This document shows positions 1-42,263 of a stretch of DNA of 64,000 nt, one piece after another. The notes below the pieces were generated by a model. The model saw only the letters and a program-made list of their open reading frames with translations, was not told the DNA's origin and ran no database searches. Origin of the DNA: Thermoplasmata archaeon (GTDB lineage: Archaea > Thermoplasmatota > SW-10-69-26 > JACQPN01 > JAJPHT01). The stretch spans positions 1 to 64,000 of the forward strand of contig JAXDQU010000079.1 of the NCBI GenBank assembly GCA_034667685.1, given 5' to 3'. Position 1 is the first letter of the stretch, and each line of letters starts with the position of its first letter. The position numbers and the translations under genes are program-made.

Positions 1-316
1 CCCCCATTGGGGGGCGGGGCGTGCCCCCGCCGGGTCCGGGCAGAGCCCGGCTGGGATGGCTTGGACTGGCAACGGGGCCTTGGCTACCGGCAGCCGCACA
101 AGCACCCGTTACAGGCGGCATCCTCGCTGCCGTCGTGTCGGGCGCGCGCACGCGACCGACCGTGGGGGGCTCCGGGGGGCACGCCCCCCGGTGGGAGGGG
201 ATTGCGGGGAGGGCAAAGCCCTCCCCACGAATCTTCGGCGCCGATAGGCGCTCATGATTGGGGGTTCGGGGGCCGTGGCCCCCGAGCGGGGGAAAGGGGG
301 CGGCAGCTCCCCTTCC
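1..316. other. Cluster of GC-rich hairpins, putative rolling-circle origin (dso/sso)
   Basis: Stems at 16-27, 36-50, 137-160, 172-191, 206-226, 266-285 and ~291-316, several preceded by G-runs. No credible CDS here. Confidence 0.55.
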
Positions 317-416
317 TAAAAAAAGTCGAAGCTGGGGGCTGGCTTAGACAGGCAACCCACTTCCAGAACACTCTAACAAAATCGCCCTTGGTCCATGTCA
401 GCAGTATGCAGACGAC

Positions 417-668
417 ATGACAAGGCATCTTGTAAGTCTCCTGCGCAAAACAGAGCAGGCCGCGCTTCGGAAGGAGATCATCGCCCGCTTGAACGTGGCA
501 GAATCGACGCTCCGAGAGTTCGCGGAACAGCAGCAGCTTGAGTACGACGCGCTGCCGCCGCCCTTTGTGGAGGCCGTCGTAAGCGCGTGCCTGAGCGGCG
601 TAGCAGACGCGCCCGATGAAGTACGCGGCCTGCGCCCCTCTCAAATCCGCGAGTCGGAAACGGAGTAG
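417..668 (+). CDS. Small helical hypothetical viral protein, possibly DNA-binding
   Basis: 83-aa ATG ORF with natural composition (IIARLNVAESTLREFAE could be an HTH). Confidence 0.55.
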   Translation: MTRHLVSLLRKTEQAALRKEIIARLNVAESTLREFAEQQQLEYDALPPPFVEAVVSACLSGVADAPDEVRGLRPSQIRESETE

Positions 669-828
669 GCGCAGCCGTCGCTCCGTCCGCATCGGATGGT
701 CATGGAGGGAGAGGGGGGACTGAAAGTTGTCGCGCGTTGCGTGACGCAAAACGGTCCCGAGAATCCCTGTCTGCTGCTCGCGCAGATAACAACGGGCGTG
801 CAGCCTGGCTCTCGGCCAGGTGGCCGCC

Positions 829-1161
829 ATGATGGAAACCACGCACACCGAATCTGACTCCGACCGCAATCCGAACGCCCCGCGCAGCCTCCGGGCGCGT
901 CTCGCGGCCAACAGGAAGGCCAGCGCGACGCGCCAGGACGCGGCCAACTTCGACATTCTGGACGCGGTGATCGGCATTTTCATCTTCGTGTCGATCATCG
1001 GTCTGGTCCCCGGCCAAATCCAGTCCGCCGTCGCCAACCTCACCGGCTTCCCCGGCGCGGGCACGCTGCTCAACCTCGTGCCCCTGCTGCTCGTGGCGAT
1101 CCTGGTGTACCGCATCTGGAACGGTCGCGGCAAGGGCAGCGCGCGCCGGAGCTACCGCTGA
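829..1161 (+). CDS. Major capsid protein, SSV1 VP1/VP3-like, with hydrophilic N-terminal propeptide
   Basis: Two hydrophobic helices (AVIGIFIFVSIIGLVP and TLLNLVPLLLVAILVYRIW), an NLT sequon in the loop and a basic C-tail. Matches SSV1 VP1 as I recall it. SD-like AGGTGG at 818-823; start at ATG 829 or 832. Confidence 0.8.
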   Translation: MMETTHTESDSDRNPNAPRSLRARLAANRKASATRQDAANFDILDAVIGIFIFVSIIGLVPGQIQSAVANLTGFPGAGTLLNLVPLLLVAILVYRIWNGRGKGSARRSYR

Positions 1162-1176
1162 AGGGGGACCCGGCGC

Positions 1177-1569
1177 ATGGTCACGGCGCGGTACACAACA
1201 GACCTTGACGGGGCGCACACCGCTCAGCCCAGCGGACCCACCGCGCCCGCGACAGACCCCAAGGCGGTCCGCTCGCGCCTCGTCGTCCCCCTTCTCAATC
1301 TCATCTTCGCCGGCATCCTCGACGCCCTGCTGACCCTCGTGGGGATCGCGCAGGGCGGGCGCGAGTTGAACCCCAGCGCCGTGTGGCTGCTCTCGCGCGG
1401 CCCGGTCGCCTTCGTCGGCGCCAGGGTCGCCACGCTGGCCCTCGTCGGCGCGGGCCTCCTGTACCTCGCCCCCTCCGCGCCGCGCACGGCCCGCGCGTGC
1501 GTCGTCGCGCTCGTCCTCTTCTTCGCCCTCGTGGACGCCTTCAGCCTCTTCCAGTTGGTGAAGCCATGA
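1177..1569 (+). CDS. DUF5658-like membrane protein
   Basis: Motif LDALLTLVGIAQGGRELNP with 3-4 TM segments. Confidence 0.7.
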   Translation: MVTARYTTDLDGAHTAQPSGPTAPATDPKAVRSRLVVPLLNLIFAGILDALLTLVGIAQGGRELNPSAVWLLSRGPVAFVGARVATLALVGAGLLYLAPSAPRTARACVVALVLFFALVDAFSLFQLVKP

Positions 1570-4184
1570 CCTCCCGCTCCCTCTCCGCGTTCTTCCTCGC
1601 GCTGCTCATCACGCTCCCCGCCCTCGTCCTCCTGACACCCACCGCCGCCGCGCTTCCCAACGGAAACGACCCGTGGCAACAGGAGATTTGGCGTCAGGCC
1701 GCCCCAGGCTCGTACTCGTCCTCGTACACCTGTGGCCCCTGCCCCAGCACGGGCACGACCGGAACCGCCTCCCTCCAGCCGGGCGACTACTATGTGGTCG
1801 TCAACGCCGGCTGTAACTCGTGCAGCGGACCTTTCAGCTACGTCCTCAACGGCGTCGGTCAAGTCAACTGGAACAACGATGGCAGCGTGTCCCTCTCCAG
1901 TGTCGGGGCGAGCGTCAGCGCGTACCAATTCCTCCAGTGGGGCGGCTGCTCCACGGGCTGCTATGCCGATCTCGCCGTGACGATCTCCAGCGCCGTCACA
2001 CTCTCGTTCAACGGCTTCAACAGCTTCGGCATGGCCTCGTGCGGCTTCGGGTGCAGCTACGGCGGCGGCACGCTGAGCACGAACGCGCTTAGCGGCTACG
2101 GCTTCGTGGGCGGCTTCTGGACGGGCTACTCGGGCGCGCAGAATTATCACGCCATGTGGTTCAGCGCGGCCTCCCAACTCAGCGAGGCCGGCATCCTTTC
2201 AACGCAGATGACGCGCACCCCCACGACTACCCAATGGACGTGGACCCAGGTTCAGGGCGACGTGCAGCTCGTCAACGCCGCGAACAGCAACGCCGGCACG
2301 CTCGTCAGCGGCGTGCAGAGCGTGACCGCCGACCTGACAAAAGGTGCGTTCATCGACACCACCGCGTTCCGCTGGGCGCCCAGCGCCGTTGCCAACGGAT
2401 GCAGCGGCGCGACGATCCAGCTTGCCGTCAGCGCCAACATGGCGTACCCCTGGAACGTCTCGGCGGAAATCGCCAACCTCTCCTTCCCCGTCACGCAAGA
2501 CGCCAACACGGGCGGAACGTCATTCGTCACCGTTGACTGGTCGAACGCGCTTGCGTCGAGCGACCGCGCCCTCACCTTCGGCACGCCCACGATCAGCGTT
2601 GCGGGCAGCACGCTCACAAAGGGCACCGCCGCGTACTACTCCAATTTCCCGCCCAGCATCGCAGCCGGCGGCACGTTCTATCTCCACTGGAACCTCCTGG
2701 GAACCGCCAACTGCGCCGCCGTCATGCAATACAACGGAGGCAACCCCTACTCGGGCGGCTCGATCTACACGGACAGCGGTACGGCATGGACCCAGCAGAC
2801 GGTACAGGACGTGAACCAACTCGTGATGAACGTCTATGGCGGCACCACGATCCTCTACACCGCCAACGAGGTACAGAAGGACGTGGGCGGCGCGTCGTAC
2901 CTCTACGTCTGCGAGGTACAGAAGGACGCGCAGCCCCAGCGGTACACGCTCAGCACGAGCTACGGCGGCGCCGCGCGCATCGGCAGCTATCAGGCCGCCG
3001 GCTCCAGCGTGTGCAACGGCGTGACCTCCACGAGCCAGCAGCAGACGATCCAGGAATGGCGCATCGGGTACGAATCCCAGGTGAACGTCACGCAGAGCGT
3101 AACGCTCAGCCTCAACGTAACGGGCGCCTCGCGCAACCTCCTGTACGTCGGCACGCTGGCCGGCACGCAGCCCACCCGGCCCAACGTTGCGTCCGGCTTC
3201 GGCTTCGCCGCGACCGGGTACAACACCATCACCGCATACAAGCTGTTCAGCACAAACGACTACTTCGCCAACCTCACCGTGCAGGTCCGCGCGTGCGCGC
3301 TCATCAACGCGGACGGATCATGCGGCGACAGCGTGACGGGCACCTACGGAGCGCCGATCCCCAACGGAACGTATGTCGGCACGGTAAGCAGCCTGCGCGC
3401 CTTCGCCGGTCAGTGGAACGCCTCGGGCTACTTCAGCGTGAGCGGCCAGGACGTGCAGGGCGGCGCCGTCGCCGTCACGATCTCTGCCTCGGGCTACGTC
3501 ACGGACTCAGGCGTGGTCATCAACGTGCCCAGCGCCCCCGGAAACTACACCGTCACGTTGACCCTGCTCCCCGCAGCGCAGGGCACGGGCCTGAGCGTCA
3601 AGCAGAGCAGCGTACAAGTGACGTTCAACGTCACCGCGCCGCAGTTCGTCAGTGGACAGGTCATCGCGGTCAGCGTCAACCGCACGCTGAACGTTGACCT
3701 GTGGGTGATCCTCTTCCAGCTTGACGGGAACGGGAACCCTCTCCAGGCGCGCGGCTTCACTCCGTTCGACTGGACGCCGAGCCAAACGAATCAGCTTGAC
3801 GTTGCATGGCCGGATGGACGCACGCTCAACGACGCCGACAGCGGCGGCTACGTCTTGGGCGTGTTCATCAAGGCGACGACCACGACCAAGGGCGTCCTTG
3901 TCGCGCAAGACCCCATCGGCGTCAATCAGGCCGCCCCGCGCGTCGGTACGTCCCTCCTGACCAACCTCAACGTGGCCGGGCAGAACGATATCTCCGCGCA
4001 AGCCCAGGTCAACGCCGCCGTCACAACGGGCCTCGTCACCGAAGCGACTGTTCAACAGGACTTCTTGACGTGGCTCGACTGGTTCCCGCGTGTCGATTTC
4101 TTCCTGCCGAACGCGGTCCTCTACCCGGTCATGTTCATGGTGGGTGCCCTCATGCTCCGCTTCGGGCGCAACGGGGGGCGCTGA
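1566..4184 (+). CDS. Large secreted beta-rich glycoprotein with C-terminal membrane anchor (putative receptor-binding/tail protein, 872 aa)
   Basis: ATGA overlap at 1566. Signal peptide, S/T/G/N-rich sequence, many NxS/T sequons, paired Cys, and a C-terminal TM followed by Arg. Confidence 0.8.
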   Translation: MTSRSLSAFFLALLITLPALVLLTPTAAALPNGNDPWQQEIWRQAAPGSYSSSYTCGPCPSTGTTGTASLQPGDYYVVVNAGCNSCSGPFSYVLNGVGQVNWNNDGSVSLSSVGASVSAYQFLQWGGCSTGCYADLAVTISSAVTLSFNGFNSFGMASCGFGCSYGGGTLSTNALSGYGFVGGFWTGYSGAQNYHAMWFSAASQLSEAGILSTQMTRTPTTTQWTWTQVQGDVQLVNAANSNAGTLVSGVQSVTADLTKGAFIDTTAFRWAPSAVANGCSGATIQLAVSANMAYPWNVSAEIANLSFPVTQDANTGGTSFVTVDWSNALASSDRALTFGTPTISVAGSTLTKGTAAYYSNFPPSIAAGGTFYLHWNLLGTANCAAVMQYNGGNPYSGGSIYTDSGTAWTQQTVQDVNQLVMNVYGGTTILYTANEVQKDVGGASYLYVCEVQKDAQPQRYTLSTSYGGAARIGSYQAAGSSVCNGVTSTSQQQTIQEWRIGYESQVNVTQSVTLSLNVTGASRNLLYVGTLAGTQPTRPNVASGFGFAATGYNTITAYKLFSTNDYFANLTVQVRACALINADGSCGDSVTGTYGAPIPNGTYVGTVSSLRAFAGQWNASGYFSVSGQDVQGGAVAVTISASGYVTDSGVVINVPSAPGNYTVTLTLLPAAQGTGLSVKQSSVQVTFNVTAPQFVSGQVIAVSVNRTLNVDLWVILFQLDGNGNPLQARGFTPFDWTPSQTNQLDVAWPDGRTLNDADSGGYVLGVFIKATTTTKGVLVAQDPIGVNQAAPRVGTSLLTNLNVAGQNDISAQAQVNAAVTTGLVTEATVQQDFLTWLDWFPRVDFFLPNAVLYPVMFMVGALMLRFGRNGGR

Positions 4185-5479
4185 CCATCGCCGCCCCCAT
4201 CCCCCACGCGGGCCGCACGCTCGCCCTGGTCCTCGTCGCTCTCGTCGCGCTCGCACCGATCACCGACGCGCGCACACTCCCGGTCCCCGACAGCGTACAG
4301 CAGACCGTGGACCTCGGAGAGATCACCTCGCAGACGTGGAGCTACGCCTTCAGCGCCCAATCCTTCGACACCGCGAGCGACGGGACCACGCCCACGTCAG
4401 TCCACTACTTCAACCAGATCGTGACCTACGACGTAGGCAGCGCCCCCGGCGGATTCTGGACCGCCACCATCGGCGGAACGTGGCTCGGCAACGTGTTCAA
4501 CGTCGCGCCCCCACCCACGCGCAGCTATCAAACGAGCGTCCTCTGGAACGGGACCGCACGGCTCAACATGACAACCACGTTCACGCTGGGCGGCGGGAGC
4601 GGCACAAGCGCCTTCGCGTGGCAAGTCTGCAATCAGGTCAACTACGCCTCCGGCGGGACCACCTACGGCGCGACCAAGGCGTGCGACTCGAAATATTGGG
4701 GCGGCAACCCCACGCACTTGTCCCACTCGTTCCACTTCGGCAACATTACCCTGGGCGGGCAGAACGTAACCGGATGGAGCGTCACGTTCACGGGCTCGCA
4801 CGTCGAGGACCAATCCTTTTCCTCGCTGGACCTTCTGGTGCCGAGCTCGAACGCACCCCATGCAACCGCCACGATCTCCAGCAGCGCGACGGCGATCAGT
4901 GGCGACCTCGCGCACGTCACCGTCGATTACTTGGCCGCGACCAACACGAATTACGCCGCCATCGACGCGGGCGCCATCAAGGCGAAGTGCGACGGCTTTG
5001 ATTGCCTCGCCATCAAGGCCGCCGATACCGTGTTCGGCGTCCTCGATCACGTCCTTACCCTGGTCTTTGACAAGCTCGGCACCGGCACCACGCAGGGCCA
5101 TGACGCCGCAGGCCGCGCCGCCGATGCCGTCACGAACATGGCGAGTATCTTCATCGGCATCCCCACGACGCTGACCGCCCTCTTCTTCCTGCACCCTGGC
5201 AAGTCGTTCCTCGCGCTCTCCGACTACCTGCTCATCCTGGGTATCGTCCGCTACGGCAGCAGCCCAATGGCCGAAGTCAGCGTGATCTGGATGACGCCCG
5301 TTCGCTTCTGGTTCGCCGTGGGGCGCGGGATCGTCGCCTTCTCCGTGTGGCTGTGGAGTCTCGTGGAACGCGCCTTCCAGGCGTTGCTCGACGCAAGCCC
5401 CATCACGCTCATGATTATCGGCGGCCTCGTCCTGGGCGCGGCCATCGGCGCGTTGATCGTCAAGCTCGCGGGGGGATGA
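4181..5479 (+). CDS. Second virion membrane protein: signal peptide, beta domain and several C-terminal TM helices (~432 aa; non-canonical start)
   Basis: Hydrophobic leader RTLALVLVALVALAP with no in-frame ATG/GTG/TTG close before it. CTG 4181 overlaps the upstream TGA. Confidence 0.7.
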   Translation: MTIAAPIPHAGRTLALVLVALVALAPITDARTLPVPDSVQQTVDLGEITSQTWSYAFSAQSFDTASDGTTPTSVHYFNQIVTYDVGSAPGGFWTATIGGTWLGNVFNVAPPPTRSYQTSVLWNGTARLNMTTTFTLGGGSGTSAFAWQVCNQVNYASGGTTYGATKACDSKYWGGNPTHLSHSFHFGNITLGGQNVTGWSVTFTGSHVEDQSFSSLDLLVPSSNAPHATATISSSATAISGDLAHVTVDYLAATNTNYAAIDAGAIKAKCDGFDCLAIKAADTVFGVLDHVLTLVFDKLGTGTTQGHDAAGRAADAVTNMASIFIGIPTTLTALFFLHPGKSFLALSDYLLILGIVRYGSSPMAEVSVIWMTPVRFWFAVGRGIVAFSVWLWSLVERAFQALLDASPITLMIIGGLVLGAAIGALIVKLAGG

Positions 5480-5676: not shown

Positions 5677-5678
5677 CC

Positions 5679-5945: not shown

Positions 5946-5949
5946 AAAC

Positions 5950-6096: not shown

Positions 6097-6171
6097 CGTA
6101 GGCCAATTTCCCCGAGCAACACCGCGCGCCTTAGCTTCGCTGCTGCCGCGCGGAATAGGAGACACAACACA

Positions 6172-6756
6172 ATGGCACTCTGGTCATGGATCAAAGACAA
6201 GCTCGGCAGCGGTGGAGAACGTGTCGTCGTCATCTGGAGCCGCGACCATCACGTTGAGTTCGTCCCGTGCGTCATCGACCCACTTCTGCGCCTCGTGCGC
6301 TCCGGCGCGGGACAGTCCTGGCCCCGGCCCTCGTTCGACCCGACACCGGACGGCAAGGCAACGTTCTACCTCGCGGCGGGAGACAAGATCATCCCGTGGC
6401 CCACGCGCGAGAAGCCCGCGTATGACGTGATGGACGACGGCACGCGCATCGAGATCACGCCCGAATACCTCGACCAACTCACGCGCGACAGCGACACCGA
6501 GGCGTGGCTGCGCGGCGCGCGGGGAATGTCCGTCATGGACCGTCTCATGCACCTGGGCGCGGGCGCCGCCCTCGGCATGGTCCTGACCTTCTTCCTCCTG
6601 AAGCTCGTCGGCTTCGTCGGCAACAAGGTCAGCAGCGGCAGCGGCACGACCGTCACGATTTCCAACACGACGGCCAACGCCACGGCGGTAGCCCCTGCCA
6701 TCATCCTCCACGCGCTCCACGTCGGCGCCCTCGCGCTGGGTGGGTGGTCCGCATGA
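6172..6756 (+). CDS. Viral membrane protein with C-terminal TM segments
   Basis: AGGAG SD; 194 aa; soluble N-domain followed by hydrophobic helices. Confidence 0.75.
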   Translation: MALWSWIKDKLGSGGERVVVIWSRDHHVEFVPCVIDPLLRLVRSGAGQSWPRPSFDPTPDGKATFYLAAGDKIIPWPTREKPAYDVMDDGTRIEITPEYLDQLTRDSDTEAWLRGARGMSVMDRLMHLGAGAALGMVLTFFLLKLVGFVGNKVSSGSGTTVTISNTTANATAVAPAIILHALHVGALALGGWSA

Positions 6757-6992: not shown

Positions 6993-7349
6993 ATGCCCGA
7001 CCCCGCCGAGCAGGCCAGCGCCGACTCCCACCAGAAGATCGTCCTGGGCTTCCGCAACCCCGAGGACGCATGGCTCAGCCAAGCCAGGATCGAGCGCGGA
7101 GACGCCCTCGTGTGGGGCATCTTCCTCGCCCGCCACGCGCGCCGCGCCAGCCGCAACGCCCACCGCGTTCTGATCGCCACCAAGACCGCCCTCGCCACGC
7201 GCAGCGAGGACGCATGGGGCAGCCACGAGGCCGCCGACGTGGCGAAGCTCCGCGTCGGAGGCCCCGCCAGCGCCCTCGACCAACTGCTCGGCAAGGAACC
7301 GCCCCCCGCCGAGACAGAGCCCGCGTCCCCCTCGGGGGGATCGTCCTGA
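6993..7349 (+). CDS. Hypothetical viral protein (118 aa)
   Basis: GGAGG upstream; TAG-ATG adjacency. Confidence 0.65.
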   Translation: MPDPAEQASADSHQKIVLGFRNPEDAWLSQARIERGDALVWGIFLARHARRASRNAHRVLIATKTALATRSEDAWGSHEAADVAKLRVGGPASALDQLLGKEPPPAETEPASPSGGSS

Positions 7350-9055: not shown

Positions 9056-10161
9056 TGGCGCTCCACTGGCCCACGCAAACCCGATGGGTTGACGATCTAC
9101 GCGACGTCGCCCCCGCCGCCCTCGACATGTGGAACCGCCACACGCGCGCATGGGGTGGCCACCGCTCTCTGACGCGCTTCCTGAGCGAGCACTACCCCGC
9201 CGAGTGGTCCCGCGTCCGCGAGTGTCGCGTCAAGTGGGAATGGTACAGCGGCACCGGCCCCCAGCGCAAGTACCGCGTCGAACGCGAGCCCTGCCGCTGC
9301 CGCCCGTTCTGCCCTGCCTGCAACAACCAATGGCAGAACGAGCGCGCACGGGGCGCCCTCAAGGCGCTGCGCCGCGTCACCCCCGGCAACAAGCCGCCCC
9401 TCGCGTTCATGCTCACCCTCGCCCCGCGAAAGCACGAGGCCCCAGGCAGCGAATGGCAAACCATCGCCGCCGAACACCACCGCGCGTACATGCGCGGAAT
9501 CTTCCGAGGCATCGAGGAATGCTTCGGGGAAGGAATCGGCGCCTTCGCCATCTATCAGCACTACGGCGAGAAACCCTTCGTCCTCACCCACCCGCACGCG
9601 CATTTCATCCTCAGCGGGTGGATGCTCCGCGACGATCACCCAGCCCGCACCCCGTACTATGACATGAGCGGCACGGGCGGCCAACGTCTCCGAGAAGCCA
9701 TCCGTTGCGGCATCGAACGCGAGGTAAGCCACGGCATCAAGATTCCAGGGATAGCATTCCTCAACGCGCGCATTGACAAGGTGGAGGACGAACCCGAACG
9801 CCTCGTGCGCCTGTTCCGCTACAACTACCGGGAGTTGATCGACCCGACCAAATGGAAGTACCCCCGCGACTCCGCAGTTGTCAGAATCGAGAATTACCAC
9901 GATCCACACGACGTTGCAGAAGTCACGCCGGCCAAGCTGCGCGCGGCCCTCGAAGAATACGGCCAGCGATACGGCAAGTGGGGCCAACCCGGAAGCCGCG
10001 TCACCGACGCGCGCTTTGGCATCCTCCGCGACAGCACCATCAGCGACACGCAACGCAGGATGGCCCCCGATCTGGACCACCGCGACGATTGCGTGTGCCA
10101 CCGCTGCATGATCTGGAGCGCCCCCTACGACGGCCAGGACGACGCCGCGCCCCTCGCGTAG
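9055..10161 (+). CDS. HUH rolling-circle endonuclease (Rep), IS91/Y2-transposase-like (368 aa)
   Basis: TGATG overlap. Zn motif C...CRCRPFCPAC, motif I FMLTL, QHYG...HPHAHFILSG (HUH), motif III LFRYNYRELI, ARFGIL, and a C-terminal HxxxCxCxxC. Confidence 0.8.
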   Translation: MALHWPTQTRWVDDLRDVAPAALDMWNRHTRAWGGHRSLTRFLSEHYPAEWSRVRECRVKWEWYSGTGPQRKYRVEREPCRCRPFCPACNNQWQNERARGALKALRRVTPGNKPPLAFMLTLAPRKHEAPGSEWQTIAAEHHRAYMRGIFRGIEECFGEGIGAFAIYQHYGEKPFVLTHPHAHFILSGWMLRDDHPARTPYYDMSGTGGQRLREAIRCGIEREVSHGIKIPGIAFLNARIDKVEDEPERLVRLFRYNYRELIDPTKWKYPRDSAVVRIENYHDPHDVAEVTPAKLRAALEEYGQRYGKWGQPGSRVTDARFGILRDSTISDTQRRMAPDLDHRDDCVCHRCMIWSAPYDGQDDAAPLA

Positions 10162-10167
10162 CCTCTC

Positions 10168-10920
10168 CTACCGGCGCCGCGCCCACGCGAGCCCGACGAC
10201 CGCCACGACGATCCACGCCACCGTCACGCCCGGTACGGTGTGCGTCTCATCGCTCACGCTGGGCGCGGGGTACGTCCCCGAGATCGTGAAGGACCCCGGC
10301 GCGGCCCCCGACGCGCACGCCTGGACGAACACAAGCCCCTCAGTCTTGGGGTCCACCGTCGAGTTGAACGCCTCGCCCCCGCGCTTCTGTACCGTCAGGT
10401 TGGACGACAGCAGCGCGAACGCCACGCCCGTCCCGTTCGCGCGGACCAACGCCGGCTTTTCCATCCCGTCCAGCGTGTAGAGGTACGCCTTGCAGGCCCC
10501 AGGCCCCAGCGTGTCGTTCAACTCAACATAGGGGGGCGCCTTGTCGAGCGGGAGGTTCGTCATCAGGTCGTTCCGCGCCGCCATCAGGACGCCCGTGCCG
10601 TTCTGAACCGCGAGCGTTCGCGTCGGGTCCTGGGACGGCACGACCTGATAGCCGCTCACCTCGAACGGATGCAAGTGGAGGTTGTAGTCCGAGATAGCGA
10701 TTCCAACGTGCGACGTGTCGAGGTCCGCGCCCTTGTCGAACGCGGAGAAGTAGAGGATCAGCGAGCTACCAGAAAGTGAAAGAGAAAGAGAATCGCCCGC
10801 AGCGAAGGGCGCGAGCTTCCCCTCCGTGATCGTGTTATCAGCGGCGTTCGCCGCGCCGGTCATGTAGGGAAAGAGCCCTCCTGCTGCGAGCAGAAGGAGC
10901 GTCACAAGGGCGCTCCGCAT
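10168..10920 (-). CDS. Secreted protein with PGF-CTERM-like sorting tail (cargo)
   Basis: Signal peptide MRSALVTLLLLAAG; C-terminus VPGVTVAWIVVAVVGLAWARRR. Confidence 0.75.
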   Translation of the reverse strand: MRSALVTLLLLAAGGLFPYMTGAANAADNTITEGKLAPFAAGDSLSLSLSGSSLILYFSAFDKGADLDTSHVGIAISDYNLHLHPFEVSGYQVVPSQDPTRTLAVQNGTGVLMAARNDLMTNLPLDKAPPYVELNDTLGPGACKAYLYTLDGMEKPALVRANGTGVAFALLSSNLTVQKRGGEAFNSTVDPKTEGLVFVQACASGAAPGSFTISGTYPAPSVSDETHTVPGVTVAWIVVAVVGLAWARRR

Positions 10921-10937
10921 GGTTCGTCCGCTCCGCT

Positions 10938-11987
10938 TCAGGTCCACGTCAGCGCGCGGTTGAGCCAGCCCGTGTCGTCGTGGTACTCCTGGAGGCAGAC
11001 GGAACACGCATACGAATCGTGGTCCATGCGGAAGTACATGTAGGCTCCCAGGGTCCCCGGCACGTTGCCTTGCGCCGCGTAGTTCAGGGTGCCCGTGTAG
11101 GTGTGGCCGCTGCTGACGAACGTGGAGGTCGCGCCGTAGGTGTCCTGATCCCAGGTCGGGTCAGACCCCATCGTGTCCGTGGAGCGGAGGTTCATGGGGC
11201 TCGTCTGCGTCCACGACACCTGGGCGCTGGGGCCTTCCTTGCCGACGCTGTACCCGTAGGAGCCGGTCTGCGCGTTGACGAACGCGGGCTCGTAGTCGCC
11301 CATGAACGTGTTGCCGCTGGAGCGCACGCCAAGGGCGGCGTGGTACACGTCGGAGTACATGTGGTACGGACAGCAGTTCGTGTCACCGTTGCCGAACCAC
11401 TGGGACGACGTAATGTAGTAGCGATACGTCGGGTCGTTGTCGTTGTCGATCTTGTACCACGTCACGACGACGCGCCAGTGGCCGTACCGGACTTCCTGGG
11501 ACGCGAGGACCGACTTGGAGGGTTCGAGGTTCGGGTGAACGTTCGTGTCCGGGACGACGGGCGGCACGTTCGCCGGCATCGGGAGGTCCGGCACCGCGAG
11601 CTTGGCCGCCGAGGGAACGCCGACGCTCAGCGTCCACGAGTGGCCGCCGGAGGCGAGGTTGATCTCGCCCGGCGCGGGCGCCATGAAGCCCGCCACGGTG
11701 GCGCTGCCGTCCTTGTCCGCCGTGCCGGAGGCCAGCGGCGTGTTCAGCGGCCCGGAAGTGATCGTGAACGGCGCGGAGGGGGCGAGCCCTTCCATCGTCA
11801 GGTCCACGAGCTCGCCCGCGACCAGGGGGTGCGCGAGGCGCGGCGTGCCGGCCATGAGGTCCACCAGGGCCACGGGGCGGCTGGGGTCCTGGGGCAGCGC
11901 GGGAACGTCCGCGCTGGCGAGGGTGGTAGTCAGGCCCGAGAAGGCCGCAAGCAACAGAAGCGCGAGAAGCGCCATCGAGGTTCTCAT
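10938..11987 (-). CDS. Secreted beta-rich hypothetical protein (cargo)
   Basis: AGGAGA SD; signal peptide; Pro-rich linker followed by a Tyr/Thr-rich domain. Confidence 0.75.
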   Translation of the reverse strand: MRTSMALLALLLLAAFSGLTTTLASADVPALPQDPSRPVALVDLMAGTPRLAHPLVAGELVDLTMEGLAPSAPFTITSGPLNTPLASGTADKDGSATVAGFMAPAPGEINLASGGHSWTLSVGVPSAAKLAVPDLPMPANVPPVVPDTNVHPNLEPSKSVLASQEVRYGHWRVVVTWYKIDNDNDPTYRYYITSSQWFGNGDTNCCPYHMYSDVYHAALGVRSSGNTFMGDYEPAFVNAQTGSYGYSVGKEGPSAQVSWTQTSPMNLRSTDTMGSDPTWDQDTYGATSTFVSSGHTYTGTLNYAAQGNVPGTLGAYMYFRMDHDSYACSVCLQEYHDDTGWLNRALTWT

Positions 11988-12170
11988 CGTGTAGTCTCCT
12001 GAGAGTCCCGTAGAGCGGCGCGTTACCCCGCCAACAAGCTCCCCGCCGTAGCTAACTGCTACCGTAGCATAAGCGCATTGGCGCTGAAGTGAATCCGATG
12101 CACAACAAGTCGAAAAATCCCCGAGAAAAATCACACTGAGCCGACGCGCTGCGAGTCGTCGCCTGCTAAA

Positions 12171-12674
12171 CTATTCTGGTGAATTGTTGTGAAGCCCCGA
12201 GTCAGGCTCCTTCGTCAACCTCCCTTCATCGTTCAGTTCGGTTACGCTACGCTTGGCGTCGGCACGTTCGCAAGCCTCGCAATCCCTTGTGATGATCCCG
12301 TCCGGCGCAATCGGAATCCAGAGCCCGCTTCCGTAGGGTGTGGCTCCGCATAGCGCCGTGCCGCTCCATGACCTCGTTCTCTTGCTGACCGGACGACCCA
12401 GGCGCACCCGATGGGCGTAGAAGTCGGCGCCGGTCGAGTAACAGCGGACGACGCGACCGGGCGCAAGCTCGCGGCGCCAAGACTGGTCCTTCGGCCCGAC
12501 CTCGCCGCCGCAGATGATCCTGAGCCCCGTTGCTTCGGAGTGTCCGTTGATCCGCGTGTGGATCGTGCGCCTTTCTTCCTGGCTAAAGACGCGCTCGGTC
12601 GGCTTGCGACCGCAGCGGTAGCACACTTGATCTTCTTCTGGATCGGGTGCCGGCTCCGTCCATCCCTCGCTCAC
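12171..12674 (-). CDS. Zn-finger-containing hypothetical protein
   Basis: CYRCG, ALCG...CEAC; GTGA overlap with the upstream gene. Confidence 0.6.
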   Translation of the reverse strand: MSEGWTEPAPDPEEDQVCYRCGRKPTERVFSQEERRTIHTRINGHSEATGLRIICGGEVGPKDQSWRRELAPGRVVRCYSTGADFYAHRVRLGRPVSKRTRSWSGTALCGATPYGSGLWIPIAPDGIITRDCEACERADAKRSVTELNDEGRLTKEPDSGLHNNSPE

Positions 12675-12853
12675 GAGGCGGCCCCCTCGTCGCTCGGCTC
12701 ATTGGCGAACAGCAGCGCGAGGCAAAGCTGCTCGTGGGCCGACTCAAGCGCGGCGAGGTCGAGGCGAGAGGCCACGCCCCCGCCGTCCAGCCTGTCCCTG
12801 GCGGCGATCATCAGGGCTTGAATCTCCAACGGCTCCAGTTCCACCGAAACCAT
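12671..12853 (-). CDS. Small hypothetical protein (60 aa)
   Basis: AGGA SD before ATG 12853; helical; coupled to the next gene. Confidence 0.55.
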   Translation of the reverse strand: MVSVELEPLEIQALMIAARDRLDGGGVASRLDLAALESAHEQLCLALLFANEPSDEGAAS

Positions 12854-12933
12854 AGCGTCCTGCGGTGGCAGAATGCTACGGTAAGGGGAAAGGGTTTGCG
12901 GCTTCAACCCGTTGCGCCACACGAGGGCGAGGC

Positions 12934-13257
12934 TTGGAGGACATTCTCAGCCGGCCCCGCGTCTGCCGTCTCATTGTCGAATTGAGGAAGGTTCACCCAA
13001 AGCCCATGACCGCCACCCAGGCGATGCGCGCGACCGGCTACTTCTCGCGTGACCTGGGGAAGCTCCTGCGCGATTGCCGGGAGTGGGGCCTTGTGTCCGT
13101 CGAATCGCGCGTGCAAGGCAACGCCGAACCCAAGGCGATCAGCCTGACGCCCGAAGGCGTTGAGTCCGGCGACGTGCTGATGCGCTTCGAGAGCTTGGCT
13201 CTCAAGGCTCGCAGCCGCGCGCCGCCCATCGAGGACGAACCCGACGACGGCGATTAG
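12934..13257 (+). CDS. Winged-helix transcription regulator (MarR/ArsR-like)
   Basis: wHTH pattern ending GLVSVE...ISLTPEG; TTG start inferred; divergent from the 12853 gene. Confidence 0.7.
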   Translation: MEDILSRPRVCRLIVELRKVHPKPMTATQAMRATGYFSRDLGKLLRDCREWGLVSVESRVQGNAEPKAISLTPEGVESGDVLMRFESLALKARSRAPPIEDEPDDGD

Positions 13258-14774
13258 GCCAGCGCCGCAAGGCGAGCCCGCGCCGCTTCCAGCGCCCCGC
13301 GCACCAACGGATCGTCCACGACCGACGCCAACTCCGGCTCCTGCTCGATCCTCGCAACGAGGCTCGCGGAGATCGTGCGCGACAGGCCCCGCGCAAGGTA
13401 GATCGGCGCGCGCTGCGGCTGCTGTCGCCACACGGCGCACATGGCGGCCCACCGTTCCGCTTCGCCGCTCTCCAAGTAGTGCGCGGCCTCGTCAAACGCC
13501 CGTTCGGCCTCTTCGTAGCGGCCCAGCTTCACCAGCGCCATGCCGTAGTCCGCGCGCAGATCACCGCGCCGGGGCTCGTGCGCGATGGCGCGCGGGTAGA
13601 GGTCCACCGCCATGAGCCAGTTCCCCGAGTCTGCCGCCAGCGCCGCACGCTCGGCCAAGCTCAAGCGCGGCTCCACGGGCGCAACGCGACGGCCCCGCCT
13701 GCGACGAACGTAGTAGCCGCCCGCCAAGGCGCTCCCAAGGATCAGACCGCCGAGGGTTGCCGCTGGAACGATGGATCGGGCGCGGGGGAACAGCGGTGGC
13801 GGTGCGGGCATGTGCGTCCCCTGAATCGAGGTCCCACGGAACGCGCCTTGGAAGTCGAGCCCAACCGCGCCGCTCGTCGCTTTCAGCGTCCCCGACATGG
13901 CGCCGTCAACCCACGCGGGGCCGCGCGTGGCGGAATACAACGTGTCCGCCGTCGTGACGTTACCTTGGGCGTCCTCGAACGAGAGCCGCCCATCCCATGT
14001 CGCCGTCGCGGTCGTGCCCGCCACGACGGCGCCCACGTCGCCCACGTCCAACGTTGCGTTCTCAAACTCCAGCCAAGCCCATTCGACGTTCCGACCGTGA
14101 ACGGGCGCGTCACTGGTGAAGTTGTCTCCGGTCCGCAAGGGCGTCACGCCCTCCGGCGTAGCAATCTCAACGTCGGGACCGTTGAGCTTCACCGTCCCGC
14201 GACCCGTGCAAGAAACCGCCCCGCGCGTCTCCGTCAGGAGGTAGGGCGACGTGAAACGGGCCAAGAAGTGCGGCCACGAGGGCGCGTCATCGGTCGCGGT
14301 GGAACCCGTGTCAATGTCCGGGCTTACCACGTCACCGCTTGCGCGCGCCCCCGTTTGGACGGGCGAGAACGCGCAAGAGGCGCCGTCAAGATGCGCGCCC
14401 AGCCATCCGGATTGGTTGCCCTGCGTCAAGCCGACGCGGGCGTGGGAGAAGTCCGAACACGTCACCTTGTCTTTGGCGGTGGGTGCGCTCGTCGAGAACG
14501 CGAACGACCCGGCGGCAACCTCCGTCTGAGGATGCTCGTACCCGCAAGCGTGCAGAAGCGCCGTCGAGATCGTCAGCTTCCCCAGCTCGTCCGTGTGCGG
14601 AACCAACAGCACCACGCCGGCCATGCTCCCGGCGCTCTCGGCGGGGAACGTTACGCTGCCCGCCACGGTCAGCGACCCTTGGGTTCCGGGGCTGGCGGTG
14701 GCGAGCCCCGCGCAGGCGATCAACAGCAGTAGAAGGCTTGCCCCCCGTAGCCCCGCGCTGTTAGAATCCCCCAT
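13254..14774 (-). CDS. Single-pass membrane protein: extracellular beta domain, TM and cytoplasmic TPR repeats
   Basis: Signal peptide; TM followed by RRRR; TPR-like ADYGMALVKLGRYEEAERAFDEA. Confidence 0.75.
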   Translation of the reverse strand: MGDSNSAGLRGASLLLLLIACAGLATASPGTQGSLTVAGSVTFPAESAGSMAGVVLLVPHTDELGKLTISTALLHACGYEHPQTEVAAGSFAFSTSAPTAKDKVTCSDFSHARVGLTQGNQSGWLGAHLDGASCAFSPVQTGARASGDVVSPDIDTGSTATDDAPSWPHFLARFTSPYLLTETRGAVSCTGRGTVKLNGPDVEIATPEGVTPLRTGDNFTSDAPVHGRNVEWAWLEFENATLDVGDVGAVVAGTTATATWDGRLSFEDAQGNVTTADTLYSATRGPAWVDGAMSGTLKATSGAVGLDFQGAFRGTSIQGTHMPAPPPLFPRARSIVPAATLGGLILGSALAGGYYVRRRRGRRVAPVEPRLSLAERAALAADSGNWLMAVDLYPRAIAHEPRRGDLRADYGMALVKLGRYEEAERAFDEAAHYLESGEAERWAAMCAVWRQQPQRAPIYLARGLSRTISASLVARIEQEPELASVVDDPLVRGALEAARARLAALA

Positions 14775-15001
14775 CTTCTCGGCCCGCGGGAGGGCGCCGA
14801 AGGGCCTTGGTTCCTCCGGTCCTGCTGAACCCTGCAACCTCCCGGTTACGTCCCATTTACGTTGTTTGGAGGAAAGTTGTGACGCGGTTTCAAGGCAGCC
14901 CAAAAGCCTATTCCATCGAGCCCAACGAAAACTTGGAGACACGTTCGCAAATCGAACGTCGCCAAGGTTATTGCGACTCTACGCGCTCTTGCGCCGATCC
15001 C

Positions 15002-15445
15002 ATGATGCGGTTCGGCTTCGCGGTCCTCGCGGTCCTCGTCCTGGCCGTCCCGCCCAGCGCGGCTGACGGGATCGACCCCCACGCGCCCGTCCTCGCCATC
15101 GCCTCCACCACGGGCAACGCCGTCGCCGTCTCCTGGGTGCCCGGCGCCGAGGCCCCCGACTACTTCAACGTGTACGGCATGGACAACGGAACCCGGACCC
15201 TCCTGGGAACCGGCGTCACCGCGAACCACGCCGAGGTCGCATGGGGCTTCCCCAGCTACGAGGTTACAGCCGTCACCGGCACAACAGAAACCGCCGCACT
15301 CGTGGCGGTCGCCTTCCTCACGGATATTTGCCGCGTTGAGGTTGACGACGGCCCCCCGCCGACCGTCAACGCGGGCGGCTGCACGCCGGGCCTCCCCGCC
15401 AAGGGCCATCTGGAAATCGACGCCCGCACGGGCCTTGTTGAGTGA
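15002..15445 (+). CDS. Small secreted FN3/Ig-like protein
   Basis: Signal peptide; VSW...YFNVYG...YEVTAV FN3 pattern. Confidence 0.7.
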   Translation: MMRFGFAVLAVLVLAVPPSAADGIDPHAPVLAIASTTGNAVAVSWVPGAEAPDYFNVYGMDNGTRTLLGTGVTANHAEVAWGFPSYEVTAVTGTTETAALVAVAFLTDICRVEVDDGPPPTVNAGGCTPGLPAKGHLEIDARTGLVE

Positions 15446-15449
15446 ACGG

Positions 15450-15542
15450 CTACGGCTCGCGGTAGCCGCATGACCGACAGCCCGGCCCGCCCGCGCAAAG
15501 GCTCAGCGGTTGCCCGCACTCCGGGCACGATGGATCGTCCAT
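15450..15542 (-). CDS. 30-aa CPxCG zinc-finger microprotein
   Basis: GGAGG SD, then MDDPSCPECGQPLSLCAGGPGCRSCGYREP. Confidence 0.6.
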   Translation of the reverse strand: MDDPSCPECGQPLSLCAGGPGCRSCGYREP

Positions 15543-15778
15543 GCCCCTCCAGCACCCCACCCGGCGCGAGATGGCGCCGGGGAGGGTGCGCTGAACCCAC
15601 CACGGACACGGGTGGACAGAAACCAAAGCCGCCCAGGGGAGGAGGGGCGGCTGCGGAGCAAAAGAGGGAAGCCACCGATTCTTGGCGGGCAGGAAGTGGC
15701 TGCACGGGTGGCCGGCGCGCGGCGCCGGAAGAATCGGCGCCCCGCGAGGGGCGCACCCAACCCCGGCGCGACCGGCGA

Positions 15779-16105
15779 TCAGTGGCCCAACGCTGTTTCG
15801 TCCTCCACGAAATCCACGGGGTAGAGCACCGTTGCGCCGGTCTCGTCCAAGCGCAGCACGCGGGCGGGGTTGAGCAGACGGTAATCCTCGGGCTCTCGGA
15901 GCCATCGGCTCCACGTCATCCGGACCCGGCCCGTCGCCCACCGCTCCCGTCTGCTGCTCTCGCCGCAGACCATGACCCACGAGGGGGGCGGGGTGGCGGC
16001 GCGGGTCGCCTCGGCCACGCACGTCCGGAAGCGGCAGAACCCGCGAGCCCGCGTCTCATCCGAGCGGAGAATGCACCGGCAGACCCGGCAACGCGGGGCG
16101 GTCAT
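15779..16105 (-). CDS. Zn-finger protein (DUF6011-like N-terminus)
   Basis: CRVCRCIL...RARGFCRFRTC; ATGA overlap. Confidence 0.6.
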   Translation of the reverse strand: MTAPRCRVCRCILRSDETRARGFCRFRTCVAEATRAATPPPSWVMVCGESSRRERWATGRVRMTWSRWLREPEDYRLLNPARVLRLDETGATVLYPVDFVEDETALGH

Positions 16106-16380
16106 GGCTGCACCCTCGCCAGGATCGCGGGATCGACGGCCCCGAGGACCGAGCGCCAAGGGTGCATCATGCGGCAGGCATCGCAGGCGAACGCCGCGCG
16201 AGTCCACGGCACGGCCAGGACGGGCGTTCCCCGGTAGCGGCAAACGCGCACGTCCAAGGGGCGTTCAACGCTGTGGCCGCACGCGAGCCGCAGCCGGTCC
16301 CCTCGCCCCGTGCCGACGACGGCGCGGAATGCTCCCGCGCACCGGGGGCACGCCCGCGCCCACGTCGCACCGTGGCTCAT
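16102..16380 (-). CDS. Cys-rich Zn-finger protein coupled to the integrase
   Basis: CPRC, LACGH, CDAC; ATGA overlaps at both ends. Confidence 0.6.
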   Translation of the reverse strand: MSHGATWARACPRCAGAFRAVVGTGRGDRLRLACGHSVERPLDVRVCRYRGTPVLAVPWTRAAFACDACRMMHPWRSVLGAVDPAILARVQP

Positions 16381-17480
16381 CGCTCGGCCTCCTTCGCGGA
16401 TTCGACCGGGCGCCCGTTGCCGATCCCCAAGAGCCCGCGCTTCGCCAGGGCTTCAATCGTGGAGGAAACGGCGTCCGCGATGGCTTGCTTCGGGTCCTCA
16501 CGGATGCGCGCCCCCAGCGCGTCCACGTTGGCGTCCCGTCTGATCCGCTCCTGAAGCTGGCGCTTGGACAGGTGGATATAGCGGGTCGGCATCGTGCTTG
16601 TTGCGCTCCAGCCGAAGAAGGGCCGCATTTGCGGCTCGTTCCAGCCGGCATCAGCGGCGCGCGTGGCCCGCGTGTGGCGGAACAGATGCGGGTGAATGTG
16701 CCGCAGGCCGGCGGCCTTCGCCAGCATCTTCAACAGCTTGTGAATGGCGCCGGGGTACATGCCGTCGTCCCCGGAGCGGTTGACAAAGAGGCGGGCGTTC
16801 GGGTTCTGAGCGTCCGGGTGGAGCGCAATCCAGGCGCGCAGGGCGCCCGCGCACTCAATGAGGAAGATGCGGCGCGGCCCGGTCTTGAGGTCCGGCGCGG
16901 CAGGGTCCATCCCCACCGTGACGGCCCCCTCGTTGTCGAATTGCACGTCGCAGAGCCGCACGGCCAGGAGTTCGCTCAGCCTGAACCCGGAGTCCCAAAG
17001 GAGCCAAAGGATCGCCACCCGGCGAGCCGCCACGGCCTCAACGTTGGTCGTCTCGACAGCCGCCCGAAGCAGCGCCCGAAACTCGTCCTCCGAGATCGGC
17101 GTCACGTCTTTCCAGTCGAGGCGGGCGTCACGCTTCAGAGCCCGGCGGATCGCCCTCGGGCACTCGTCATCGTTGCACCACGAATAGTACGCCTTCAGGT
17201 GCGCCGCGAACGCGCTTGCGCTTCCTGGCGCGTGGCTCCGGGCGTACTCGTGCAGGCAGTTGGTCAAGGTGTCCGGCGTCAGGTGGCCGTAGGGCGTCCC
17301 GTTGGTCGCCCCGTCGAGGTAGAGCAGGCTGCGGACGGTCAGTTGAACCGTCGTCTGCTTCCGGCCTCGGGCCAGCATGGTCTTGACGTAGGCCCGTACC
17401 GAGTCCTGATTCCCCGCCGACACCCGGCGGATAAGCTCATCTGTCGCCTTCGGGTTCGCGTAGCCGTGAGACCTTCGCAA
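16377..17480 (-). CDS. int: Tyrosine recombinase/integrase
   Basis: DSGFRLSE (R), KTGPR (K), HPHLFRH (HxxR), FGW, PTRYIH (Y); N-terminal core-binding domain present. Confidence 0.92.
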   Translation of the reverse strand: MRRSHGYANPKATDELIRRVSAGNQDSVRAYVKTMLARGRKQTTVQLTVRSLLYLDGATNGTPYGHLTPDTLTNCLHEYARSHAPGSASAFAAHLKAYYSWCNDDECPRAIRRALKRDARLDWKDVTPISEDEFRALLRAAVETTNVEAVAARRVAILWLLWDSGFRLSELLAVRLCDVQFDNEGAVTVGMDPAAPDLKTGPRRIFLIECAGALRAWIALHPDAQNPNARLFVNRSGDDGMYPGAIHKLLKMLAKAAGLRHIHPHLFRHTRATRAADAGWNEPQMRPFFGWSATSTMPTRYIHLSKRQLQERIRRDANVDALGARIREDPKQAIADAVSSTIEALAKRGLLGIGNGRPVESAKEAER

Positions 17481-17513
17481 TAGGACACTTTCCTACGGCG
17501 TAGGTATTCTCTT

Positions 17514-17588
17514 GGGCGCGTAGCACAGTCCGGATAGTGCACTGGCCTTCTAAGCCAGGGGTCGCGGGTTCGAATCCCGCCGCGCTCG
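17514..17588 (+). tRNA. tRNA-Arg(TCT)
   Basis: Full cloverleaf: acceptor GGGCGCG/CGCGCTC, anticodon TCT at 17549-17551, TTCGAAT T-loop; no intron and no CCA. Confidence 0.95.
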
Positions 17589-42238: not shown

Positions 42239-42263
42239 GGGGCGGCGATGCCCGGGCGCCTGT

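Follow-up and report, generated by a model that had tools for sequence, protein, structure and literature searches.

A tRNA-associated element of a soil Thermoplasmatota archaeon is probably an integrated virus genome of the spindle-shaped lineage

Introduction

Is the mobile element that occupies the 5' end of a tRNA-Arg gene in a soil archaeon the dormant genome of a spindle-shaped virus? The question is raised by positions 1–17,589 of the window, i.e. of the whole stretch of 64,000 nt analyzed here, with which the 108-kb contig C79 of genome G000 (3.48 Mb, 124 contigs, 99% complete) begins. Contigs are designated by C plus a number, G001 and G003 are genomes of the same genus, and L plus a number refers to fetched related loci. 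A preliminary description of this DNA had read the region as a provirus that combines a spindle-virus capsid protein with a Zot/pI-like ATPase and an IS91-like rolling-circle initiator (Rep) in a non-halophilic archaeon of high GC content. According to our analysis, the element is probably the integrated genome of a temperate virus belonging to the spindle lineage (fusellovirus/halspivirus-like). A dormant genome of this kind is the most likely reading because two hallmark genes and a rolling-circle gene reside together on a mobile element.

To our knowledge, lemon-shaped viruses are confined to archaea. Their hosts comprise Sulfolobales, Thermococcales, haloarchaea, Nitrososphaeria, Asgard archaea and Nanohaloarchaeota. 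The host of the present element is a soil archaeon of the Thermoplasmatota: the 16S gene of G000 scored 1498 bits with the archaeal small-subunit model as compared to 1086 bits with the bacterial model, homologous elements are found in Thermoplasmatota relatives, and the sequencing runs containing window DNA are soil metagenomes. The host assignment of the preliminary description was thereby confirmed, including the non-halophilic lifestyle as judged by sample type. GC content amounts to ~0.65–0.70 over positions 1–17,000 and mostly to 0.69–0.77 further right in the window.

Results

A homolog of the fusellovirus capsid protein VP1

The putative major capsid protein (110 aa) is encoded at 829..1161 on the plus strand. 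Its polar and basic N-terminal 35 residues are followed by two hydrophobic helices forming a hairpin (residues 38–69 and 73–99) and by a basic tail. By BLASTP, 67 aa spanning both helices were 40% identical to the SSV1 VP1 precursor (E = 3e-7), and the alignment includes the N-L-T loop motif and the sequence 'TLLNLVPL' at the start of helix 2. In Smith-Waterman comparisons the two proteins reached a score of 81, as compared to 27.1 ± 4.7 for shuffled sequences (z = 11.4), and none of 2000 shuffles attained this score. A z value of 8.4 was obtained when the hydrophobic core alone was shuffled. Against SSV1 VP1, z values of -0.2 and -0.9 were obtained for two further small membrane proteins encoded in the window, and comparison of the capsid-like protein with His1 VP21 gave z = 3.5. 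SSV1 VP1 was also the single match among all six-frame open reading frames (ORFs) of SSV1, His1 and HRPV-1 (E = 6e-6).

Family-level searches pointed in the same direction. The protein matched phrog_11172 ('virion structural protein') with E = 0.0078. This PHROG represents the fusellovirus VP1 family, because the SSV1 VP1 precursor matches it with E = 1.9e-73; among the capsid family members compiled here, two of 10 matched it. The best of 177,635 PDB sequences was 7xdi_A, 'VP1' (E = 0.021, both helices aligned), which we take to be the capsid protein of SSV19. A search of 1.84 billion representatives returned 11 proteins at E ≤ 0.001, nine of which are small (87–144 aa) and collinear, whereas two long matches (1018 and 1718 aa) were excluded from the family alignment A3. 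The two-helix layout is kept in nine homologs, and the A3 profile matched SSV1 VP1 (hhalign 92.8%, E = 4e-7) and had no match to HRPV-1 VP3. The Pfam family His1_capsid (PF25665) was matched by one of 10 family members (E = 6e-4), but not by the window protein, for which Pfam returned nothing useful; no fusellovirus VP1 model appeared among the matches of the family scan. A word-index homolog search with the capsid-like protein retrieved only the protein itself. Two weak matches in 21 genomes of the class, G002:C221 (E = 2.8e-5, 42 aa; inspected at the locus) and G004:C156 (E = 0.038, with an in-frame TAG), were judged to be chance similarities. Taken together, these comparisons identify the 829–1161 product, by sequence, as a true homolog of spindle-virus capsid proteins that is closest to fusellovirus VP1, in agreement with the preliminary description.

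The loop between the helices carries an N-L-T sequon in eight of the 10 family members, N-M-T in one and no N in another. Of the three positions, T72 is invariant and the other two (N70 and L71) almost are, and SSV1 VP1 exhibits N-L-T and N-A-T at matching places. Fusellovirus capsid proteins are glycosylated.

The ATPase matches the signature ATPase family of spindle-shaped viruses

The second hallmark gene, at 7883..9055 on the plus strand, codes for a P-loop ATPase that is enlarged to 390 aa, with Walker A (GHTGMAKSS) and Walker B (IQDE) motifs; G138, G141, K144, S145, D190 and E191 are invariant in the family alignment. None of its 24 homologs carries a Pfam domain, and two of them are named as 'Thermoplasmatota archaeon' and 'Halobacteriales archaeon' proteins from metagenome-assembled genomes (MAGs). 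When all ORFs of His1, SSV1 and HRPV-1 were searched with the ATPase profile A1, His1 ORF16 was the sole match (hmmsearch, E = 1e-7). HRPV-1 VP8 was not matched. Alignment with ORF16 by hhalign extends from Walker A to Walker B (96%, E = 2.8e-9, 79 columns). Moreover, 10 of 25 ATPase family members matched phrog_5484 (best E = 3.3e-4), the PHROG common to His1 ORF16 and SSV1 B251, as compared to four of 25 for the next family. A metagenome scan with the ATPase profile yielded only two short contigs. According to a preprint, spindle-shaped viruses have two signature proteins, namely this AAA+ ATPase and the hairpin capsid protein (bioRxiv 10.1101/2025.02.15.638363). Judged by profile similarity, the ATPase belongs to the His1 ORF16/SSV1 B251 family.

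The former label 'Zot/pI-like' should be replaced, because the family matches the spindle-virus signature ATPase. Pfam detected no family, Zot included, at E ≤ 0.1. An AlphaFold model (predicted local distance difference test, pLDDT, 88.8) displayed a generic P-loop core of the additional strand catalytic E (ASCE) class, and the fold lists of Foldseek and VIA-align contained RadA, RFC, VirB4, TcpA, HerA and FtsK, none of which stands out. The N-terminal domain of Zot (2r2a) ranked ninth among generic P-loop Foldseek matches (E = 0.012) and was not listed by VIA-align. Comparison with a viral fold library was not discriminating: an ORF of Acidianus two-tailed virus appeared at rank 23 amid many helicase-like regions of RNA viruses. 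PDB sequence searches with the ATPase and Rep profiles gave nothing meaningful.

A putative HUH-type initiator with an N-terminal zinc ribbon

The adjacent gene (9055..10161, plus strand) encodes a putative rolling-circle replication initiator, in which an N-terminal Cys4 zinc ribbon precedes an HUH-type nuclease domain. A word search detected only two close homologs, and Rep homologs adjoin the ATPase in related loci. In an alignment of 10 sequences, residues C57, C80, C86 and C89, the H179-P180-H181 motif, Y256, R259 and Y281 are invariant. When the structural model of Rep (pLDDT 76.7) was compared by VIA-align, 18 of the 22 first rows were, by their entry titles, HUH-fold nucleases, relaxases or transposases (Z 6.8–4.0), among them bocavirus NS1 (6.8), SIRV1 ORF119 (6.7), TrwC (5.7), Vientovirus Rep (5.7), Helitron (5.2) and adeno-associated virus (AAV) Rep (5.1). 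Foldseek scores were modest, with Helitron (probability 0.80), TrwC and the AAV origin-binding domain all at E ≥ 0.005. The invariant H-P-H and tyrosine residues together with the HUH-like fold matches thus bear out the claim of an HUH-type Rep, and the modelled protein is best described as a putative HUH-type initiator with a zinc ribbon.

The more specific designation 'IS91-like' did not hold and denotes a remote resemblance at most. Pfam signals in the Rep family remained below threshold (Y2_Tnp in two of 10 members, best E = 0.025; Rep_1 in two of 10, 0.055; Zn_Tnp_IS91 in one of 10, 1.2). A six-frame scan of the genome produced a sole Y2_Tnp match of 11.4 bits (cut-off 20.9), located inside a Rep gene, and two Rep_1 matches of 10.8 and 11.3 bits (cut-off 33.2), both inside Rep genes. 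In the IS91 family the catalytic tyrosine pair is spaced as YxxxY. The conserved tyrosines Y256 and Y281 of Rep are separated by 25 residues, there is no YxxxY, and a local Y-N-Y of the window protein is not conserved in the family. Like Rep, the IS91/Helitron (Y2) and Rep_1 proteins possess a zinc-binding N-terminal region in front of the HUH domain, and Helitron figures in both fold lists. They differ by the scores below cut-off, the H-P-H motif and the tyrosine spacing, and the element is devoid of transposon ends.

The gene order also bears on a different kind of virus, a pleolipovirus-like provirus producing pleomorphic, vesicle-type particles. The succession of a small membrane protein, a spike, small ORFs, an ATPase and a rolling-circle Rep resembles the HRPV-1 record, and relatives of pleolipoviruses have been reported from Methanomassiliicoccales (Thermoplasmatota). 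However, there is no similarity to HRPV-1 VP3 (shuffle z = 1.0) or VP8, HRPV-1 ORFs were unmatched by any element protein or profile, and both the capsid protein and the ATPase match proteins of spindle-shaped viruses rather than those of pleolipoviruses. Membership in the Pleolipoviridae was rejected, as homologs of VP3 and VP8 and a match to any HRPV-1 ORF were not found, and we regard a pleolipovirus-like provirus as highly improbable.

The element is integrated at the 5' end of a tRNA-Arg gene

Mobility of the element is documented at its boundaries. The tyrosine integrase gene (16377..17480, minus strand; PF00589, 65.6 bits at a cut-off of 27.1, E = 6.1e-18; phrog_1, E = 1.5e-28) is intact and diverges from tRNA-Arg(TCT), predicted at 17514–17589 on the plus strand, as had been described initially. 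The sequence (T)GGGCGCGTA at 17513–17522 (plus strand), comprising the first 9 nt of tRNA-Arg(TCT), is the core of the right attachment site (attR) and lies 33 nt outside the integrase gene. As the gene is intact and the att core is external to it, the integrase is not of the SSV type, which is split on integration. It is 41% identical (tblastn) to the integrase of a second element on contig C78, and integrase genes are likewise located next to the tRNA 5' end in G000:C78 (tRNA-Ser) and in L015 (tRNA-Arg GCG).

An empty site is present in G003:C24, where tRNA-Arg is followed within ~80 bp by a homolog of contig C120 of G000, starting from position 143 of the latter. In C120 itself, the host sequence leads up to (T)GGGCGCGTA at 49–57, beyond which 48 nt of foreign sequence reach the contig end. 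C120:1–57 therefore supplies the attL core and 48 nt of element sequence, i.e. the flank to the left of position 1 that the preliminary description had wished to see retrieved. Since the left end with attL is located on C120, the element extends beyond window position 1. It consists of C120:48..1, a small unassembled gap near the left end and C79:1..17513, measures at least 17.56 kb and is bounded by a 9–10 bp direct repeat of the 5' end of tRNA-Arg(TCT). Rather than being conserved and syntenic in all relatives, the region is mobile, as the ATPase occurs in five of 41 related genomes (G000 included) and the site is empty in G003 of the same genus.

The element on C78 is organized similarly. 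Its repeat GCGGACGT at 12514–12521 corresponds to the first 8 nt of tRNA-Ser, and its left arm is homologous to the arm on C120 ('...GAAAC(A/T)AT(T)GGGCGGGGGAGGT(C/T)CGGAA'). Among four GGGCGGGGGAGG sites in the genome, the att arm motif was present only at C120 and C78.

An att site at the 3' end of the tRNA was considered as well and rejected, because the 42-nt repeats at 17573–17614 and 17676–17716 do not bound the element. In the former, 17 nt from the end of tRNA-Arg are joined to 25 nt of downstream sequence. It recurs as the latter with 95% identity, and the 17-nt tRNA end is found once more at 17717–17733. L015 has a comparable repeat, in which 14 nt of the tRNA 3' end of that locus recur 57 bp downstream. 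Such repeats may be traces left by other elements targeting the tRNA 3' end. In G001:C72 (L043, 3047–4243), tRNA-Arg(TCT) is inverted relative to both flanks and lies apart from the C120 homolog by ~1.1 kb of extra DNA, an arrangement that may reflect a recombinase-mediated inversion or an element remnant.

Gene content of the element

All genes of the preliminary description were recovered at or near their proposed positions by ORF, Pfam and tRNA scans, the choice of genes among many spurious ORFs being guided by third-position GC. At the contig edge, a non-coding GC-rich hairpin region (1..330) includes a segment conserved in related elements: positions 110–147 are 87% identical (39 nt) to G000:C78:13442–13480, and positions 112–233 are 88% identical to G003:C26:832–952. 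This conserved segment, 110–233, may act as an origin or regulatory site.

The genes up to Rep are encoded on the plus strand. A small ORF of 83 aa (417..668), which matched no known family, precedes the capsid gene. The latter is followed by a DUF5658 membrane protein with three hydrophobic segments (1177..1569; PF18902, E = 1.5e-9), homologs of which are present in the elements on C109 and G003:C39, and whose stop codon overlaps the start of the next gene (ATGA). That gene encodes a protein of 872 aa (1566..4184), a putative virion end-fibre or receptor-binding protein. Besides a signal peptide, it has 10 N-x-S/T sequons and carries a membrane anchor at its C terminus. It lacks a Pfam or PHROG family and has homologs in G000:C109 (33%), G003:C39 and G003:C7. 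An Atlas lead for this protein (score 0.76, an unnamed and mostly viral cluster) stayed under the level to be trusted. The second large protein (~430 aa, ~4187..5479, start codon uncertain) possesses a signal peptide and several C-terminal membrane segments, and positional counterparts are found 3' of the adhesin in C109, G003:C39 and G003:C7.

Three small genes that overlap one another come next. They code for proteins of 66 aa with a C-terminal membrane segment (5476–5676), of 96 aa with two membrane segments (5655–5945) and of 61 aa with a basic composition (5911–6096; 16 K/R versus 2 D/E); scanning of the latter two revealed no Pfam family. Two further proteins are kept upstream of the ATPase in relatives, namely a 194-aa protein with C-terminal membrane segments (6172..6756; homologs at L013 2988–3557, E = 2.9e-33, and L047 15183–15686) and a soluble protein of 118 aa (6993..7349; homologs in L022 and L013). 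No protein-primed polymerase family was detected by Pfam among the ORFs scanned.

Downstream of Rep, an accessory block of mostly minus-strand genes (10168..16243) codes for secreted, tetratricopeptide repeat (TPR) and Zn-ribbon proteins: a secreted, anchored protein (10168–10920), a secreted protein (10938–11987), a Zn-ribbon protein (12171–12674), a secreted TPR protein (13254–14774), a small CxxC protein (15450–15600) and a 154-aa protein (15779–16243), of which a 69% identical copy exists on G000:C22. Only 12865–13257 and 14807–15445 are on the plus strand.

The stretch 829–10161 had been viewed as one coupled operon, which stands in part. Start/stop overlaps (ATGA or TGATG) at 1566, 5476 and 9055 suggest translational coupling at these three sites. 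However, the whole stretch is not one coupled run, because gaps of 75 nt (6096–6172), 236 nt (6756–6993) and 533 nt (7349–7883) interrupt it. Of the parallel drawn to filamentous phages, an analogy in gene order is what remains.

This gene content could also be taken for that of a non-viral integrative element or genomic island with cell-surface proteins, in which the VP1-like gene was co-opted or resembles VP1 by chance. Many secreted proteins are encoded in the accessory block, the adhesin/DUF5658 module occurs in elements lacking a detectable VP1 homolog, and particle evidence is nil. Yet the similarity to VP1 lies far above composition effects in the shuffle test and is seen independently in PHROGs, the PDB and Pfam His1_capsid. 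Furthermore, a second signature gene of spindle-shaped viruses is linked to the VP1-like gene, and in G003:C7 an ATPase with a clear match to phrog_5484 (E = 3.9e-9) is coupled to the same adhesin. We therefore consider a non-viral island improbable and return to the integrated spindle-lineage genome as the preferred reading.

Related and satellite-like elements

The genome G000 contains four ATPase genes (C79, C78, C109 and C42), three Rep genes (C79, C109 and C42) and a single capsid gene. ATPase and Rep occur together in nine loci. The ATPase comes before Rep in five loci, three of which (L014, L015 and L023) also show an integrase, while in C109, G003:C39, L027 and L028 the two genes are adjacent or overlapping with Rep first.

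A second type of element, represented by C109:15572–25918 and G003:C39:~34500–46300 (L024/L025), carries Rep, the ATPase, an anchored 200-aa protein and DUF5658; homologs of the two large proteins are present as well, and so is another, third anchored protein. In a third type, G003:C7 (~14600–23300; L047, 8619–17283), a close homolog of the 872-aa protein, 79% identical in DNA over 1.7 kb, is accompanied by a multi-pass partner. The 278-aa ATPase of this element, which gave the phrog_5484 match mentioned above, also matched the A1 profile over 159 columns (E = 2e-4). Just upstream of the adhesin, G003:C7 encodes a small protein of two helices, which has an N-A-T loop and a 'DDAAN' motif. A role as capsid protein is not claimed for it, as this motif is all that it has in common with the capsid family (hhalign 1.6%). 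For homologs of the capsid protein (56% identical), the ATPase (86%) and Rep (63%), the longest contig listed measures 75,920 nt in each case, and a diverged second copy of the capsid-ATPase-Rep trio probably exists elsewhere.

The element on C78 (G000:C78:12522–21860, L044) is 9.3 kb in length, resides at tRNA-Ser(GGA) and carries an integrase and an ATPase that is 44% identical, without a Rep or capsid gene. Its cargo of low GC content (59%) was identified by PADLOC as Lamassu (LmuA, 1.8e-54; LmuC, 4.7e-13; LmuB, 1.5e-122), making this element a candidate defense-carrying satellite. L014 (JAZJZE010000002.1, 7315–28481), titled 'MAG: bacterium', contains an ATPase-Rep-integrase mini-element adjoining an open frame that exceeds 2,665 aa and is cut by the end of the retrieved sequence; the label of the bin may be wrong, or these elements may have a wider host range. 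By analogy, the smaller elements without a capsid gene are probably satellites that would use viruses such as the present one as helpers.

The existence of these elements invites the view that the window's element is an integrative satellite or plasmid-virus hybrid itself (pSSVx/SRCE-like) and needs a helper spindle virus for particle formation. SRCEs are described as combining a plasmid-type Rep with a capsid protein, an ATPase or both, and the ATPase-Rep pair is a widespread backbone (nine loci) of mostly small elements without structural genes. However, the element is at least 17.6 kb in size, as compared to 2.7–9 kb reported for SRCEs, and it carries a full candidate structural set that comprises two large anchored proteins in addition to the capsid protein and membrane proteins. 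Moreover, no other capsid-bearing element that could serve as helper is present in the 99%-complete genome. A helper-dependent satellite is thus an unlikely explanation, albeit the first to be reckoned with next to an autonomous virus.

State of the element in metagenomes and points against a viral genome

In run X1, possibly the sample of origin, window positions 24–17632 are covered at a depth of 9.45 by one Logan contig, which is 17,609 nt long. Run X2, from a different study, contains identical contigs, one of which bridges 16200–19238 and thereby demonstrates the integrated junction in a second soil sample. Run X3, from sediment, contains fragments 90–95% identical to the element. The picture is that of a single integrated copy. 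Joints listed for circular forms have sides of ~20 nt and look spurious; they provide no evidence either way. Spacer-like matches in 15 genomes of the order, CRISPR arrays themselves not having been searched, were restricted to 23–45 nt at 82–100% identity, which is typical of high GC content.

Several observations weigh against a viral genome of the spindle lineage. A circular junction and raised coverage, which the preliminary description had envisaged, were both not seen: the depth of the element does not exceed that of the flanking contigs (11.3 and 9.59), and no excised or circular form was detected in Logan contigs of the three runs, where rare forms would escape because only contigs were compared. 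No virion has been seen, virion shape is unreadable from sequence, and the left end of the element is incompletely assembled. At E ≤ 0.01, a capsid homolog is absent from 15 related loci and seven pieces of G000 contigs that contain 17 ATPase matches, and the adhesin-sharing elements C109, G003:C39 and G003:C7 are without a detectable VP1 homolog. On the side of the hallmark proteins, A3 matched His1 VP21 weakly (hhalign 6.9%, E = 0.005), the ATPase profile matched SSV1 B251 weakly (4.5%), and the window ATPase itself failed to reach phrog_5484 at E ≤ 1. Finally, neither the capsid-like protein nor the ATPase had a tblastn match among 50,697 phage and virus records, and a profile scan of IMG/VR found no relative of the ATPase.

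Discussion

A temperate life cycle can be proposed for the element as the genome of a spindle-lineage virus. The integrase would recombine the short core beside its own gene with the tRNA 5' end, leaving the integrase gene intact. Following excision, the Zn-ribbon HUH protein would nick the origin, possibly the conserved non-coding segment in the hairpin region, and drive rolling-circle replication. The VP1-like protein together with DUF5658 and the small membrane proteins could build a lipid-associated, lemon-shaped shell, to which the two large anchored and probably glycosylated proteins would contribute host-binding terminal fibres. The ATPase might act in morphogenesis or replication, as assumed for its homologs, and smaller elements without capsid gene could exploit such viruses as helpers.

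How new is such a virus? Krupovic et al. 2014 reportedly may list related proviruses in other Euryarchaeota. In our literature search, which covered texts outside of supplements, no report of a spindle-shaped virus for Thermoplasmatota was found. The mention of Thermoplasmatota that did turn up concerned pleomorphic viruses, and a 2026 provirus survey counts no more than 30 provirus regions in Thermoplasmatota plus Nanobdellota. The combination of a capsid protein with an HUH Rep is not unprecedented. DHSV-1, a putative haloarchaeal spindle virus, already joins a capsid protein, an ATPase and an HUH endonuclease, as described in the preprint (bioRxiv 10.1101/2025.02.15.638363), and novelty is lowered by this haloarchaeal precedent. 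Within the scope of our literature search, novelty appears to lie in the phylum and habitat of the host, in the element's size as a rolling-circle replicon, in its Rep family, in the short att core situated at the tRNA 5' end and in the satellite-like elements that accompany it.

Accordingly graded, it is probable that the element represents a new lineage of spindle-shaped viruses, and plausible that it belongs to an undescribed virus family. More tentatively, and with the odds somewhat against the full set of claims, it could be the founding member of a new spindle-virus family of mesophilic, high-GC soil Thermoplasmatota that replicates a genome of at least 17.6 kb by rolling circle via a zinc-ribbon HUH family missed by current models, uses a 9–10 bp att core at the tRNA 5' end and is attended by a guild of ATPase-integrase satellites sharing its att arm, most with Rep and one with Lamassu. 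If the assignment is true, the host range of the capsid lineage extends to abundant soil archaea, and the conserved capsid-ATPase pair provides another case of a swapped replication module. Experimental work would also gain defined att sites, together with candidates for an origin and for a virus-satellite system.

Among known systems, Fuselloviridae (SSV1, SSV19) share with the element the VP1-type two-helix capsid protein with N-L-T and 'TLLNLVPL', an ATPase of the B251 PHROG, tRNA integration by a tyrosine recombinase and a large candidate end-fibre protein. Apart from VP1, no SSV1 ORF was matched by element proteins. Fuselloviruses differ in their thermoacidophilic Sulfolobales hosts from the soil Thermoplasmatota host of the element, which in turn is distinguished by the unsplit integrase, the att core of 9–10 bp at the tRNA 5' end, the HUH Rep and the one capsid paralog found. 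Halspiviridae (His1) resemble the element in the ATPase family, which best matches ORF16, and in that one capsid-family member matches His1_capsid. In contrast to His1, the element has no protein-primed polymerase family among the scanned ORFs, does not live in a halophile and possesses an integrase. With DHSV-1 (9.0 kb), which was compared at the level of its description, the element shares the three genes named above at about twice the size. The mini-elements C78, L014, L015 and L023 are pSSVx/SRCE-like, as they carry an ATPase and an integrase, no capsid gene and, in all but C78, a Rep. The left att arm and the non-coding segment are common to C78 and the window's element. Unlike pSSVx and SRCEs, these four mini-elements are integrative at tRNA genes, and one of them carries Lamassu.

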